Shown here one piece after another: positions 27,247-39,520 of a stretch of 41,712 nt of DNA. The position numbers and the translations under genes were made by a program. The notes beneath the pieces were generated by a model that was given only the letters and a program-made list of their open reading frames with translations, did no database searches and was not told the origin of the DNA. The stretch is taken from contig CAYUUK010000009.1 in assembly GCA_964447905.1 (NCBI GenBank), forward strand, positions 1-41,712, read 5' to 3'. Numbering within the stretch: the first letter of the stretch is position 1; each line of letters opens with the position of its first letter. This DNA is from an uncultured Pseudomonadales bacterium. GTDB taxonomy: Bacteria > Patescibacteriota > Microgenomatia > UBA1400 > UBA1396.

Positions 27247-27275
27247 TTGACAGTCTCCATTTTTAGCAATATAAT
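27247..27275 (+). promoter_or_regulatory. Consensus sigma70 promoter driving T-box 1
   Basis: TTGACA-N17-TATAAT, perfect match. Confidence 0.88.
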
Positions 27276-27282
27276 TTCGAAC

Positions 27283-27526
27283 AATCCGCAATAACGAGTG
27301 TCGCGCCTCGTGATCTTGCAAGCACACAAAGCAAGAGCGGAATCTCGCAAAATCGAGATCGGCTGGCATCCGTAACTTCCAGACTTGTGTCACTCGTTTA
27401 GAGAAACGGAGCAAGTTACAAAGTGTGTATTGGCAACAATACACTAAATAAGGGTGGTACCGCGTTTTTAAATTTTAGAAGACGCCCCTTTGTCTACAAA
27501 ATACTTGTAGGTGAAGGGGCGTTTTT
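27283..27526 (+). ncRNA. T-box riboswitch 1 (transcriptional; probable Arg CGC specifier)
   Basis: AAGGGTGGTACCGCG at 27450-27464; CGCCCCT antiterminator partner; terminator 27481-27526; hairpin ACGAG-TGTCGCGC-CTCGT. Confidence 0.9.
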
Positions 27527-27554
27527 GCGTTTCATGACCTACGGAAAGGGAAAG

Positions 27555-28418
27555 ATGCCACAAACACATGAGCATCATCAATACACAGAAATAATGCCAA
27601 ATAAAAACATTCGTTTTGGCCTCTGGAAAGATATAGATCCTGGTATTCTCTACGAAACACTGGAACATCCAAACTGGGCTCCGTGGCTAGAAGCTGACAT
27701 TGCTTCCATTCATGGCAGGGCACAGTTTTTTCCCAAAGGGCAATTGCTGCTCCTAGACGGTACAAAACCCATTGCCAACCTCTCTACAAATCAGATTATG
27801 TGGAATGGTAATCCAAATTCATTACCAACTTGGGATGATATTGCTGGAAATCCAAGTGACTACAGTCAAACCTATACACCTACTGGAAATACGTTGGTTT
27901 TAATGTCTATGAATGTCGCTCCTGAATACCATGGTCAACAGCTCCCTGCAAAACTCGTCGGGCAAGTGCAACAGATGGCGTTTCAACTTGGTATCCAACA
28001 TATAGTGGGATCATTTCGACCCAATACATATGGAGCTCTGAAACAACAATACCAACAAGACATTCCTTTTTGGCACTACGCTACAAAAATGAAAACACCC
28101 AGAATAGATACCAATGGTGCTTTTGGTAAACCAGGAAAAACAGTTCACATGCCTGTAGATAGTTGGCTGAGAAGCTTAACATGGTTAGGAATGCAACCTA
28201 TAAAAGAAGATACAACCGCCATGACGGTTACCGTTCCAGTAGCGGAATTTGAGTACTATCAACAAACCTATCATCCTGAATCTTGGTGGCAGGCACCAAA
28301 CGGGAAATGGCACTGTAGTGAAGTTGGTAGTTGGACAATTAACCGAGAGCAACAAACAGCCACATACCAGGAATCCAACCTGTACGGATCATTGCCACTT
28401 TTACAAGGAGCACGATGA
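27555..28418 (+). CDS. GNAT-family acyltransferase (YkwB-like)
   Basis: FPKGQL...TWDDI...GNTLVLMSMNVAPEYHGQQL; start ATG 27555 after the T-box terminator with GGAAAGGG SD. Confidence 0.7.
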   Translation: MPQTHEHHQYTEIMPNKNIRFGLWKDIDPGILYETLEHPNWAPWLEADIASIHGRAQFFPKGQLLLLDGTKPIANLSTNQIMWNGNPNSLPTWDDIAGNPSDYSQTYTPTGNTLVLMSMNVAPEYHGQQLPAKLVGQVQQMAFQLGIQHIVGSFRPNTYGALKQQYQQDIPFWHYATKMKTPRIDTNGAFGKPGKTVHMPVDSWLRSLTWLGMQPIKEDTTAMTVTVPVAEFEYYQQTYHPESWWQAPNGKWHCSEVGSWTINREQQTATYQESNLYGSLPLLQGAR

Positions 28419-29218
28419 ACGCCCAATCTGAATGGTTCTCTCTTCAACAAGTCACTCCACATATTTTTGCTGTTGCAGAACCACATCACTGGGAAGAAGT
28501 GATTTCATATGTTTTTGTAACACCAGATCAACTTTTTCTATTTGATACTGGCATGGGATATGAGTCTCTCTCTCAATTCCTGCAGGAACAATTCTATTCA
28601 AGACCGGTTACTGTCTTACTCAGCCATGCCCACTGGGATCATATTGGCAGTGTGCATGAATTTACAGATATTTGGATTCATGCACACACCTGGGAAACAG
28701 AGAGACTCGCTCGAGGATTTCACTCTTTAGAAGTTGAAGAACTCTCGTCACCCTACTTTTCTGCTCCATTTGTAACAAAAGAGTTTATCGCTCCAGGGTC
28801 ATCTCAGTTTCAAACTTTCCAAGACGGGTATACTTTTGAGACATCATGTGGTGTTATTGCTGTCATTCACACACCTGGGCATACACCCGGATCAGTCTGT
28901 TTTTGGTTACCAGAAGAAAATGTACTTATTACTGGCGACACTCTCTATCCAGCTGCGGAGTTTTTGTATTTGCCGGAGTCAAATGTTGTTGCCTACACAA
29001 AGAGCATAAAAAAACTCCTGCACCAGTTTCGGGACAGTACCATTACGATTCTTCCGGGGCATAATGCCATTCAAACCAATATACAGTTGCTACAAGATCA
29101 CCATGACGCGCTTCTTGGCAAGACCAAAGCACACAAAAGAGAATTAAAAGAAGACCATTATGGGAAATTCGAAGAATGTTTCTTCCAGGGATTTTCACTC
29201 CGACTACCGCAGTGTTAG
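28415..29218 (+). CDS. MBL-fold metallohydrolase
   Basis: FDTG, SHAHWDHIG, HTPGHTPGS, ITGD and LPGH; ATGA coupling with the GNAT. Confidence 0.92.
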   Translation: MNAQSEWFSLQQVTPHIFAVAEPHHWEEVISYVFVTPDQLFLFDTGMGYESLSQFLQEQFYSRPVTVLLSHAHWDHIGSVHEFTDIWIHAHTWETERLARGFHSLEVEELSSPYFSAPFVTKEFIAPGSSQFQTFQDGYTFETSCGVIAVIHTPGHTPGSVCFWLPEENVLITGDTLYPAAEFLYLPESNVVAYTKSIKKLLHQFRDSTITILPGHNAIQTNIQLLQDHHDALLGKTKAHKRELKEDHYGKFEECFFQGFSLRLPQC

Positions 29219-36543: not shown

Positions 36544-37908
36544 TTATTTGAGTAAATCTTGTAATTTTTGTTGAAAGTGTTTGTTTTGTTTTTTCCAGTA
36601 TGTACGCTCAAGGCGAGACCTTTTTTGTGTAATTCCTAGTTGTAAGTTGCCAGTGGATCCCTGTGAGATTGCTTTCATTAACAACTCTGCTATGTCGAAA
36701 TCTGGAATCTCATGTAGATGATCCTTAACGTATCGATACGCTTCTCGAAACGGCATGTCTTTTTCTTCTACTAACACATATGCCCAATGAGCAGCAAAAA
36801 GTTCTTTAGGAATATGGTGTTCTACTTTTTCTTGATTGATTGTGAGCGTCTCTACATGCAGTTGGGCTACTTGAAGTGATTCAAGCGTTGTTTGAAAAGC
36901 TGAGATAAGACTTCCCTTGGCTTGTTGCAAATCTCTGTTATATCCAGAGGGGATGCTCGCCAAACTGGTGCTTAATTGAAGTTGAGTGGAGACTATTTGA
37001 TGATACTTTGATCGCATTAACTCTAAAGCGTCCCAGTTTTGTTTCTGAGGCATGATACTACTGCCCGTACCAAGTTCTTTGGCAAAAGAAATGTAGCCAA
37101 ATGGTTCAGTTGTAAAAATAAGACAGTCAGTCGCAAATTTATTAAGCGTTGCCATGATCTGGCACAGTGCATGGATAGTTACCGCTTCAATTTTCCCTCG
37201 TGAGTTTTGACAATACAGGGCATTGTTTTGAACTTTCTCAAAGCCAAGTAAATGAGCTGTGAATTCTCGGTCAAGTGGTAGAGTTACACCATACGCCGCT
37301 CCAGAACCAAGCGGCGACTGATTATTGAGTTGATAGGCAGTTTTTAATACTTCTAGATCGTCGAGCAAGCTTTCTGCATAGGCTCCAAGCCACAACCCAA
37401 ATGATGACAACATAGCAGGTTGCATGTGGGTCATGCCAGCTAGGGGAACATTTTGGTAGTTTTCAGCTTGTTTGAGAAAACTTTCAATAAGTGCAATAGA
37501 GCTCTCAGCAATTTTTGAAATTTGTGTTTTTGAGTAGAGTCGAATATCAACAAGTACTTGATCATTTCTTGATCGTCCGGTGTGCAGTTTTCCACCCGAT
37601 TCTGGATGCAAATTCGTGAGTTCGGTTTCAACCTTGGTGTGAATATCTTCATCACCCAGTGAGAGATTCATTTCTCCACTGGAAAACTGTTTTAAGATTG
37701 CTTTCAATCCAGCATGTATCTGTTTAAAGTCTTTCTCTTCAATCAGGTTCTGCTTCTGAAGCATCTTGGCATGTGCCAGAGATCCGTAGATATCAAACTC
37801 GGCTAGATGGGTATCCAACAAAACGTCCTCTCCAGAAGTGTACTTTTCTATCAAAGCGTTAATTGTATGAGTGGTTTGCCACAGTTTTTTTGTCATAGTT
37901 TTTTTCAT
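36544..37908 (-). CDS. argH: Argininosuccinate lyase (start may be 37896)
   Basis: EDIH, LHTGRSRNDQ, THMQPA, SPLGSGA, GSSIMPQK and SGYNRDLQ. Confidence 0.95.
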   Translation of the reverse strand: MKKTMTKKLWQTTHTINALIEKYTSGEDVLLDTHLAEFDIYGSLAHAKMLQKQNLIEEKDFKQIHAGLKAILKQFSSGEMNLSLGDEDIHTKVETELTNLHPESGGKLHTGRSRNDQVLVDIRLYSKTQISKIAESSIALIESFLKQAENYQNVPLAGMTHMQPAMLSSFGLWLGAYAESLLDDLEVLKTAYQLNNQSPLGSGAAYGVTLPLDREFTAHLLGFEKVQNNALYCQNSRGKIEAVTIHALCQIMATLNKFATDCLIFTTEPFGYISFAKELGTGSSIMPQKQNWDALELMRSKYHQIVSTQLQLSTSLASIPSGYNRDLQQAKGSLISAFQTTLESLQVAQLHVETLTINQEKVEHHIPKELFAAHWAYVLVEEKDMPFREAYRYVKDHLHEIPDFDIAELLMKAISQGSTGNLQLGITQKRSRLERTYWKKQNKHFQQKLQDLLK

Positions 37909-37920
37909 TTATTTTTTCTT

Positions 37921-37997
37921 TGGTGAGCCCGGCAGGATTCGAACCTGCGACCTTCAGTTCCGCAAACTGACGCTCTATCCAACTGAGCTACGAGCGC
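37921..37997 (-). tRNA. tRNA-Arg(GCG)
   Basis: TCAGT-TT-GCG-GA-ACTGA anticodon arm; A73 and CCA encoded; C2-U71 mismatch. Confidence 0.93.
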
Positions 37998-37998
37998 A

Positions 37999-38076
37999 TG
38001 GTGCCCTAGGAGGGATTCGAACCCCCGCAAAACCCGGTTCCGAAGACCGGTGCTCTATCCACTGAGCTACTAAGGC
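37999..38076 (-). tRNA. tRNA-Arg(UCG)
   Basis: CCGGT-CT-TCG-GA-ACCGG; GCCTTAG/CTAGGGC acceptor stem; ACCA end. Confidence 0.93.
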
Positions 38077-38085
38077 ATTCTCACG

Positions 38086-38158
38086 TGCGTTTGGTGGGAC
38101 TCGAACCCACAACCTACTGCTTAGAAGGCAGTTGCTCTATCCCTTGAGCTACAAACGC
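38086..38158 (-). tRNA. tRNA-Arg(UCU), CCA not encoded
   Basis: ACTGC-CT-TCT-AA-GCAGT; GCGTTTG/CAAACGC acceptor stem; A73. Confidence 0.95.
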
Positions 38159-38390
38159 AAAAACGCCCCTTCACCTACCTCTTATCAGTAGACAAAGGGG
38201 CGTTTTCTGTAAACGCGGTACCACCCTTATTCTCTAAGTAATTACTCACTTAGACTTTACACCTGCTCTGTTACTCGATTTGAGTGACACAGATTTGAGT
38301 TATAACGGACTCGAATCGATCTCGATTTTGCGAGACTCCGCACTAGATTATATCTAGATTCATTGAGCGCGACTTCAATTCAAACGGATT
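38159..38390 (-). ncRNA. T-box riboswitch 2 (transcriptional; probable Arg CGC specifier)
   Basis: AAGGGTGGTACCGCG at 38228-38214; terminator AAACGCCCCTTTGTCTAC...GTAGGTGAAGGGGCGTTTTT; CCGTTA box; hairpin ATTGA-AGTCGCGC-TCAAT. Confidence 0.9.
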
Positions 38391-38413
38391 TATTTGTTTT
38401 TAACAACAAAGAA

Positions 38414-38441
38414 ATTATAACAAACATCTTATTGCGTTCAA
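38414..38441 (-). promoter_or_regulatory. Promoter for T-box 2
   Basis: TTGAAC-N16-TATAAT with extended -10 TG. Confidence 0.7.
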
Positions 38442-39520
38442 GATTTAAATTGAGATTTAGAAATTAACATATCTAAAATAATCATCTGTAATTTTTGTAG
38501 ATCATCAACTGATATTCGTTCATTAGTTGTATGAGGATCAATAACCCCGTCACTCACTGTTACAACTTCTAATCCTAGTTCAGCAAATGAGTTTGCGTCA
38601 CTTATTCCAAACACTTTTTTCTTTTTTAGAGGTAAATTATACTTATTAAGAATTTTTTCTATAAAATGAACCTGTTGTGAGTTATCTTTATGTGTATATC
38701 CACTACAATAACCACTAGTGCTAAATTTGAATATCGCATTTCCAAATTGTTTTTGGGTTTGATTTAGTCTTAACTCCAGCTTTTCAAGCATGTTCTTGAA
38801 TTTTGTTGCCGAAAAACTACGAATTTCTCCTTCTACAACAACCTTCTCAGGAATAGCATTTATTGCTGATCCTCCGCATATTTTTCCAATATTGAGAAAA
38901 ACATCTTTCTCGTCATTTGCACCCAGTCTCAAAGTCTCAATGTACTTGGTGGCGAATCGTAAAGCATTCACACCTTTTTCGGGAAAACAAGCATGTGCCC
39001 CTCTCCCGATAAATTCTATGTAAAAATTCACTATAAATGGGGCTGAAGTCACGATAGTTCCTAGTGGTTCAGCATAATCAAAAATATAGCCTTGCTTATT
39101 TTCAATAAGTTTGGTGTCAAAAAATTCAGCACCACCACCGGTTTCTTCTTTCACTGTAAATACGAGTTCAATTCCATTAATTGGCTTTATCAACATCCAT
39201 TCATCAACTGCTGTAAGAATCGCAGCCATGGATGCTTTGTTATCTGCTCCTAAAATAGTATTGCCTTGGCTTTGAATTACTCCATCTTGAATAATTGGAT
39301 GAATAGACCTTCCTGGTTCGACAGTGTCCATATGGGCACATAAAAAGAAGGGGATGAGAGTATCTCCCTCTTTTTTTAAAACAAGATTACCGACACTATC
39401 AGTGAAGTGAGACAGATTTCTTGATTTTCCCCATTGAATAAGCCATTTTCTAACATTTTCCTCACTACCTGATGGACTATCGATTTTTACTAACTCAAAA
39501 AATGTATCAATTAATGTCAT
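38438..39520 (-). CDS. M20B peptidase T-like metallohydrolase
   Basis: IDSPSGSE, AHMDTVEPG, LGADNKA, KEETG, AHA..PEKGVNA and HTTNE. Confidence 0.9.
   Translation of the reverse strand: MTLIDTFFELVKIDSPSGSEENVRKWLIQWGKSRNLSHFTDSVGNLVLKKEGDTLIPFFLCAHMDTVEPGRSIHPIIQDGVIQSQGNTILGADNKASMAAILTAVDEWMLIKPINGIELVFTVKEETGGGAEFFDTKLIENKQGYIFDYAEPLGTIVTSAPFIVNFYIEFIGRGAHACFPEKGVNALRFATKYIETLRLGANDEKDVFLNIGKICGGSAINAIPEKVVVEGEIRSFSATKFKNMLEKLELRLNQTQKQFGNAIFKFSTSGYCSGYTHKDNSQQVHFIEKILNKYNLPLKKKKVFGISDANSFAELGLEVVTVSDGVIDPHTTNERISVDDLQKLQMIILDMLISKSQFKS

Follow-up and report, generated by a model that had tools for sequence, protein, structure and literature searches.

Two short-stem T-box leaders with an apical CGC codon in a Patescibacteria genome: probable tRNA-Arg-dependent transcription attenuators without a long Stem I

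The canonical transcriptional T-box, represented by the Rfam family RF00230 and by the Bacillus tyrS and glyQS leaders, contains a long Stem I, which holds an internal specifier loop, an AG bulge and a distal loop platform, as well as a Stem II with an S-turn, a Stem IIA/B pseudoknot with the F-box, a Stem III, and a T-box sequence carrying UGGN in the bulge of an antiterminator that excludes a terminator. The specifier codon is followed by a purine, and the targets are aminoacyl-tRNA synthetase and amino-acid biosynthesis genes. A second type, the ultrashort-Stem-I translational ileS T-boxes of Actinobacteria, was reportedly described by Sherwood et al. in 2015; here the Stem I is a short kink-turn (K-turn) hairpin whose apical loop holds the specifier, there is no elbow platform, the pseudoknot of Stem IIA/B persists and a ribosome-binding site is sequestered. 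The S-turn of Stem II, which docks on the codon-anticodon helix, has been reported to be essential in this ileS class (ileS T-box paper). The present work deals with two leaders, copy 1 and copy 2, found in a 41,712-nucleotide (nt) stretch of contig CAYUUK010000009.1 (assembly GCA_964447905.1), the whole of which is called the window. The genome has a size of 1.06 Mb in 37 contigs, and its reliably named relatives, taken from ArgH and from the gene after copy 1, belong to the Candidate Phyla Radiation (CPR): Woesebacteria, Roizmanbacteria, Gottesmanbacteria and 'Patescibacteria group'. Many contigs from bins of about 1 Mb that carry close relatives of this ArgH (in the set L034-L076) are titled uncultured Gammaproteobacteria or Pseudomonadales, or Micrarchaeota, probably through automatic mislabelling of CPR bins, and the assignment draws on the CPR-named records and on genome sizes near 1 Mb. 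Both leaders are, with high probability, working tRNA-Arg-specific, transcription-attenuating T-boxes which form part of an architectural variant spread through the Patescibacteria (CPR) lineage, a reading obtained from sequence comparison.

By the features that define the mechanism (T-box and antiterminator, competing terminator, specifier, UGGN and IIA/B pseudoknot) these leaders belong to the T-box family, and they also share with the canonical form the F-box, the Stem III, the purine after the specifier and the kind of genes placed under control. On the other hand, they depart from the canonical form in platform, S-turn and Rfam score: the long Stem I with its internal specifier loop, AG bulge and distal loop platform is missing, Stem II is reduced to a hairpin of 5-6 base pairs (bp) that has CAAAAU as its loop and lacks the S-turn, and an extra stem stands before Stem III. 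The actinobacterial ileS T-boxes are closer in their short K-turn Stem I (relatives of the two leaders follow the K-turn consensus clearly, copies 1 and 2 in degenerate form), their apical-loop specifier, the lack of an elbow platform and the Stem IIA/B pseudoknot. Nevertheless, they also depart from that class in expression platform and S-turn: a transcription terminator is present instead of a sequestered ribosome-binding site, and the window's group has no S-turn; besides, Ile is replaced by Arg, His, Trp and Tyr as the amino acids sensed, the leaders come from Patescibacteria, and in some lineages the K-turn has gained a third helix. An apical codon in a very short Stem I would thus be combined with a transcription stop, whereas the apical-codon type has so far been described only for T-boxes that control translation. 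In the full-text literature searched, no paper was found that ties T-boxes to CPR taxa, to tRNA genes as targets or to a short-stem terminator type. The new structural class proposed in the preliminary description of this DNA is plausible, and T-box control of extra tRNA genes may be unreported. Related to this, the translational model of the TBDB paper is built on Actinobacteria, and class-I matches with a truncated Stem I, which may bear on the claim of novelty, are mentioned only in the supplement.

The organisation of copy 1 is the following, where + is the plus strand:

27247-27275, +: sigma-70 promoter, TTGACA-17 nt-TATAAT, with 12/12 consensus bases (perfect).
27285-27526, +: whole leader, from the start of helix P1 to the end of the terminator.
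27285-27341, +: Stem I, a three-way junction of P1 and hairpins A and B, from the minimum-free-energy (MFE) fold and the covariation in 21 leaders.
27285-27289 with 27337-27341, +: P1, TCCGC with GCGGA.
27294-27311, +: specifier hairpin A, ACGAG (27294-27298) with CTCGT (27307-27311).
27299-27306, +: loop of hairpin A, TGTCGCGC (= UGUCGCGC).
27302-27304, +: the apical loop's putative specifier codon, CGC, with the purine G27305 after it.
27312-27313, +: GA between hairpins A and B.
27314-27336, +: inserted hairpin B, TCTTGC (27314-27319) with GCAAGA (27331-27336).
27343-27358, +: mini Stem II, TCTCGCAAAATCGAGA = UCUCG-CAAAAU-CGAGA, a covarying helix with a conserved loop.
27360-27382, +: Stem IIA, F-box and 3' strand of the Stem IIB pseudoknot, from the Rfam alignment.
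27370-27375, +: F-box CCGTAA (CCGUAA), aligned to the Rfam T-box model.
27379-27382, +: CCAG, which forms Stem IIB with CUGG of the IIA loop.
27384-27415, +: 'stem X', CUUG-UGUC-[hairpin]-AAC.GAG-CAAG, with the motif TGTGTCACTC...GAGCA inside.
27423-27444, +: Stem III, helix 8 of the covariation set.
27451-27464, +: T-box sequence AGGGTGGTACCGCG (= AGGGUGGUACCGCG).
27451-27489, +: T-box and antiterminator, with the bulge UGGU complementary to A73-CCA.
27480-27526, +: intrinsic terminator, a 20-pair stem and T-run, -29.8 kcal/mol, z -7.2.

The same arrangement is repeated in copy 2, where - is the minus strand:

38414-38441, -: promoter TTGAAC-16 nt-TG-TATAAT, with 10/12 consensus bases.
38388-38159, -: whole leader.
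38337-38388, -: Stem I three-way junction, P1 being 38388-38384 with 38341-38337.
38379-38362, -: hairpin A, with loop AGUCGCGC at 38374-38367 and CGC at 38371-38369.
38357-38343, -: hairpin B.
38335-38320, -: Stem II.
38318-38297, -: Stem IIA/B, with F-box CCGUUA aligned to the Rfam model.
38293-38262, -: stem X.
38254-38233, -: Stem III.
38227-38193, -: T-box and antiterminator.
38159-38206, -: intrinsic terminator, -27 kcal/mol, z -6.6.

All the motifs that the preliminary description had listed are present in both copies, in the order it gave, as seen in the alignments and in the sequence itself. The two copies have 81% column identity and the T-box AGGGUGGUACCGCG in common, and MFE folding gives the same three-way junction for both. 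In hairpin A, 4 of the 5 pairs are altered on both strands from one copy to the other with the GUCGCGC loop unchanged, and hairpin B is in each copy a 6-bp helix of different sequence. When the 60-nt pieces are folded alone the z-scores are weak (-2.2 and -0.37), and the decisive structural support is provided by 21 homologous leaders. A long Stem I cannot fit in copy 1, since only 9 nt lie between the end of the -10 box and P1.

The standard model agrees with this absence. At the gathering threshold, which for RF00230 is 93 bits, an Rfam scan of the window gave no T-box match; with relaxed thresholds copy 1 reached 34.9 bits and copy 2 44.8 bits, scores that are low because both copies are devoid of a long Stem I. 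The alignment with copy 1 deletes 68 distal Stem I positions as well as 9 of the 13 positions in the Stem II loop, and copy 2 is aligned only by running on into promoter sequence with a large number of non-pairs. F-box, Stem III and T-box, which make up the 3' half, align well, and in neither copy does the model place a conventional Stem I or an alternative specifier. None of the 19 short-stem leaders tested reaches the RF00230 cut-off, whereas L020, a long-Stem-I leader of the same order whose specifier was read as UUA (Leu), passes it with 96.4 bits.

Relatives were searched, as had been proposed, with a covariance model (R1) built from copies 1 and 2. Matches were found in 33 of 101 related genomes of about 1 Mb (43 matches, of which 41 leaders were examined), among them 6 of the 8 genomes within the same family, and in 8 of 151 genomes sampled phylum-wide, the own genome and G026 counted. 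In an alignment of 21 Arg-type leaders from several families, fitted to the model structure, pairing reaches 95.9% of cells, compared with 70.5% after shuffling (0/500 shuffles as high) and 34-47% in a slid-partner control. Changes on both sides occur in 44/51 pairs, including 5/5 in hairpin A, 6/6 in hairpin B, 6/6 in Stem II, 8/10 in stem X (helices 6 and 7) and 8/8 in Stem III (helix 8). The Stem IIB pseudoknot has a mean of 4.6 bp across the 21 leaders versus 3.3 after shuffling, and unrelated sequences maintain it (CUGG/CCAG, GAGU/ACUC, CAGGC/GCUUG, UUCAAGC/GCUUGAA and others); tested per single sequence, the cases of 3-4 bp are not significant, and it is only the pattern across sequences that is informative.

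Transcriptional control, also put forward in the preliminary description, is supported. The terminator of copy 1 overlaps the 3' strand of the antiterminator, which provides its own 5' strand; in both copies the ACGCCCCU strand is common to terminator and antiterminator and the terminator is followed by a U-run, and in copy 2 this U-run adjoins the first base of tRNA-Arg(UCU). Terminator hairpin and U-run are present in 24/24 leaders inspected. A different view would be that these leaders are decayed, non-regulatory remnants left after the loss of Stem I, or that they act on translation like the actinobacterial ultrashort class. The Rfam scores far below the cut-off would suit the former, and the fact that the ultrashort T-boxes known so far are translational (2020 review) the latter. 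However, all helices covary in the 21 leaders, the terminator is maintained throughout those inspected, and codon, discriminator-pairing base and downstream gene covary (see below). Moreover, tRNA genes, which lack a ribosome-binding site, come after copy 2 and four other leaders, and in copy 2 there is therefore none to sequester. Such a remnant or translational origin is consequently considered very unlikely, and attenuation of transcription is the preferred reading.

With regard to the codon, the CGC-loop leaders among the R1 matches are 18, and in 12 of them an Arg gene is the first downstream. The first genes are argH in 6 cases (one being a fragment that scored under the model cut-off and another being backed by Pfam only), argG in 1, argS in 2, tRNA-Arg in 3, GNAT-type genes in 3 and small or unknown open reading frames (ORFs) in 3. 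In an independent set defined by gene, 43 argH loci, R1 matches lie upstream of argH in 16, and 14 of these 16 have the apical CGC hairpin; L034 is here an identical record to L005. The exceptions are L060, with an internal specifier loop read as GAA-CGA-G, and L046, with a long Stem I. A73, complementary to the UGGU bulge, is found in all seven tRNA-Arg genes of the genome, and among their anticodons GCG is the only one fully complementary to CGC. From the sequence of the loop, U-CGC-G, it could be thought that wobble pairs with G37 and U33 of the tRNA lengthen the helix.

Other specificities are found on the same short-stem scaffold:

His type (L089): loop GUCACGA; bulge UGGG; tRNA-His(GUG) with C73 downstream, then hisG (187.8 bits; cut-off 75.75).
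Trp type: loop (A)GAAUGG(G/U); bulge UGGC in L088, L021 and L024 and UGGU in L085; trpS downstream at 2 loci (303 and 298 bits) and a TrpD-like gene after L024.
Tyr type (L029): loop AAUUUUUACA, ending in UACA; bulge UGGU; tRNA-Tyr(GUA) with A73 downstream.

Codon, discriminator-pairing base and downstream gene shift together across the short-stem leaders. The anatomy, its conservation and covariation, and this concordance are direct observations. The Arg specificity attributed to the two copies in the preliminary description stands for leaders with CGC, but it is not a property of the variant as a whole, whose scaffold also serves His, Trp and Tyr. The loop AGAAUGGG was also considered as an Asn or Met specifier, which was ruled out by the trpS and TrpD-like contexts that indicate UGG (Trp). 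L025 and L092, of the His type (GUCACGA, UGGG), are located ahead of a homolog of the VanX-like D-Ala-D-Ala dipeptidase and not of a his gene; the homolog may be a histidine-releasing dipeptidase.

The true specifier could instead be another triplet, such as GCG (Ala), which overlaps CGC, or a codon inside either hairpin B or stem X, with CGC having a structural role only. The overlap exists in all GUCGCGN loops, and in the Tyr and Trp types the codon plus one purine abut the helix, a register that would give GCG-A in GUCGCGA. Against it, the argS leader L015 (UUCGCAC) and argH-type leaders (UCGCAA, CCGCAG) keep CGC and not GCG: across these and the GUCGCG(A/C/U) variants the constant part is only CGC plus a purine, so the overlapping GCG is excluded. 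The gene contexts are Arg and never Ala, the CAC variant is accompanied by tRNA-His and hisG and by a UGGG that fits, most relatives have no hairpin B, and stem X has no conserved Arg codon. Another triplet is for these reasons hardly credible, and the comparison supports the apical CGC as the Arg specifier, in agreement with the preliminary description.

Several points weigh against the reading of both leaders as tRNA-Arg-dependent attenuators. According to the 2020 review, transcriptional T-boxes generally need the elbow platform of a long Stem I for fast tRNA capture, with translational ones alone able to dispense with it, and under that view the capture kinetics of short-stem leaders would be unexplained. 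The fit of the alignment to the model structure favours that very structure in the pair counts, and the sequences are interrelated. CGC is in the apical loop of 29/29 Arg-type leaders aligned, in sequences partly picked by eye and with a loose criterion that 725 of 2900 shuffles (25%) also pass, as a consequence of which this criterion was dropped as a stand-alone statistic. Since the GUCGCGN loops contain both CGC and an overlapping GCG (Ala), the reading register is given by comparison only. In 6 of the 18 CGC leaders the gene that follows has no evident link with arginine: GNAT-type genes after W1, L007 and L008 and small ORFs after L006, L017 and L032. The tandem G-A of the K-turn consensus is degenerate in copies 1 and 2 (AAUAA / UGA). 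Finally, in the 22 sequencing runs listed, each RNA run contains 5% of the sampled words or less, and only one run, of DNA, contains most of the stretch and may be its source.

The Stem I is ultrashort, as had been noticed, and the three-way junction of the preliminary description is real in both copies; however, it does not define the family. Most relatives have no hairpin B; their Stem I is plain and short and resembles a K-turn at its base, as in L011 (UCC-GCU-GA-AGGGA [GUCGCGA] UCCCU-GA-GGA). A K-turn elaborated to a three-way junction is known as a k-junction, as in thiamine pyrophosphate (TPP) riboswitches, and the leaders are similar to it in that the base of Stem I in the relatives without hairpin B reads like a K-turn (UCC-GNU-GA ... 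GA-GGA) and hairpin B has been placed in the non-bulged 3' strand, where it separates GA from the closing helix. They differ in the degenerate G-A pairs of copies 1 and 2, and therefore the name k-junction is one that we infer for them. Hairpin B is carried by the window's family (window, L005-L010, L035-L037) and separately by L013, L015 and L030, that is, in at least three families (f1; f8, L030; f14, L013 and L015), with different lengths and loops, and in L056 and L061 an insertion is found on the 5' side instead. It is a lineage-specific insertion into a K-turn-type ultrashort Stem I, and because of its patchy and variable occurrence the junction would be a recurrent, tolerated elaboration of the kink and not a defining feature.

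In the window's group the mini Stem II is a covarying helix of 5-6 bp with a conserved CAAAAU loop and without S-turn. A second CPR subgroup (L031, L032, L050, L051, L058 and L059) has retained a longer Stem II, possibly S-turn-like on reading by eye. Stem X, which precedes Stem III, has conserved unpaired nucleotides (UGUC ... AAC.GAG) framed by covarying helices. This conservation, together with the appearance of hairpin B in at least three families, could indicate that the platform has been relocated and that hairpin B or stem X contacts the tRNA elbow in place of the distal Stem I. But most Arg leaders do without hairpin B, the loop of which differs in both length and sequence, and stem X occurs as well in L020 next to a complete long Stem I, so stem X is not a substitute for the platform specific to short stems. 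A relocated platform is thus regarded as improbable, and the elbow-free architecture is preferred.

Some further observations were made on these leaders. In L013, L029, L031, L032, L041, L044, L050, L058, L059 and L061 the Stem III region contains a G+C-rich hairpin followed by a U-run, e.g. CCACCGNAAGGUGG-UUUUUU, upstream of the T-box sequence, which looks like a second terminator inside the leader. The genome has a third T-box-like leader, L003 (G000:C1:44817-44955, minus strand; 25.5 bits), located upstream of an ORF that by eye resembles prolyl-tRNA synthetase. Past the terminators (27520-27532; 38165-38152) copies 1 and 2 stay identical, GGGGCGTTTTTGCGTTT, and the GCGTTT of this stretch is the 5' end of tRNA-Arg(UCU) in copy 2; the post-terminator sequence of copy 1 is also present in L005 and L006. 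This identity hints at the route by which the leader was duplicated.

The following mechanism can be proposed. Transcription would start a few bases upstream of the very short Stem I, at the base of which, in this lineage, insertion of hairpin B on the non-bulged strand of an ancestral K-turn would have produced the three-way junction. The apical loop of 7-8 nt, N-G-U-CGC-G-N, similar to an anticodon loop, would offer CGC to the GCG anticodon of tRNA-Arg, and the mini Stem II with its A-rich CAAAAU loop, the Stem IIA/B pseudoknot and the F-box would act as the decoding module, without a platform for docking of the elbow and without the S-turn of Stem II. If the tRNA is uncharged, its A73-CCA end would pair with UGGU in the T-box bulge, the antiterminator would be stabilised and RNA polymerase would read through; in the absence of this pairing the terminator (-27 to -30 kcal/mol) would fold. 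We infer tRNA binding, read-through and roles for the CAAAAU loop, hairpin B and stem X from the architecture. The targets would be, for copy 1, a GNAT-fold gene and a metallo-beta-lactamase-fold gene and, for copy 2, three extra tRNA-Arg paralogs together with argH-argG:

27534-28418, +: first gene after copy 1, a protein of 294 amino acids with a GNAT-like fold (AlphaFold2, predicted local distance difference test score (pLDDT) 91.5).
28415-29218, +: metallo-beta-lactamase-fold gene, second after copy 1.
37921-38158, -: trio of tRNA-Arg genes directly after copy 2 (ARAGORN and Rfam).
38158-38085, -: tRNA-Arg(UCU).
38076-37999, -: tRNA-Arg(UCG).
37997-37921, -: tRNA-Arg(GCG).
37908-36544, -: argH (Pfam Lyase_1).
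36611-35262, -: argG (Pfam argininosuccinate synthase domains).

The 294-amino-acid protein is conserved in CPR and has no match in Pfam or NCBIfam; in the PDB it matches GNAT-like domains best (E 4.5e-10), the closest being decarboxylase/loading domains, and some of its homologs carry PF00583. Its similarity to the N-acetyltransferase after L007 is not significant (E 0.6).

As for the tRNA genes, the genome contains 45, and the only duplicates are the three Arg isoacceptors and two CAU (Met-type) genes. The other tRNA-Arg copies are solitary (G000:C13:7826-7901, C13:10626-10700 and C14:13528-13604), each with promoter-like and terminator-like sequences on reading by eye. Between operon and solitary copies 64/78 aligned columns are identical for UCG and 61/75 for UCU; the operon tRNA-Arg(GCG) differs from its solitary copy by a single base, which gives a C2-U71 mismatch in the acceptor stem. 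A promoter of its own for the tRNA cluster was considered and rejected: the minus strand has no promoter-like site between 38414 and 37850 and the first tRNA begins at the U-run, and in the region 37850-38500 of that strand none was seen besides the copy 2 promoter. A cognate tRNA gene follows 5 of the 41 leaders examined (Arg 3, Tyr 1 in L029, His 1 in L089). In two further families the T-box is directly before tRNA-Arg(UCU) (L011 and L012), and each of these genomes has a second UCU-type site within a tRNA elsewhere. No tRNA gene was present in the fetched flanks of the 43 argH loci.

These leaders may constitute a T-box class of the Patescibacteria's own, in which tRNA would be captured co-transcriptionally without elbow contacts, by means of the apical specifier, the mini Stem II and the IIA/B pseudoknot, and which would have been recruited to extra Arg, His and Tyr tRNA genes; this wider proposal is put forward tentatively, with somewhat less than even confidence. 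As a covarying terminator-type family without platform, it would be a natural counter-example to the requirement for a long Stem I, and the short-stem leaders offer a minimal co-transcriptional tRNA sensor for study or engineering, with Arg and His leaders that are one loop base and the discriminator-pairing base apart and so provide a ready test of a specificity switch. Because the standard Rfam model misses the short-stem leaders, amino-acid regulation in CPR is under-annotated. If the proposal is true, an RNA that senses tRNA would govern the supply of tRNA, and the presence in the operon of the sensed isoacceptor, tRNA-Arg(GCG), would create a self-amplifying loop.

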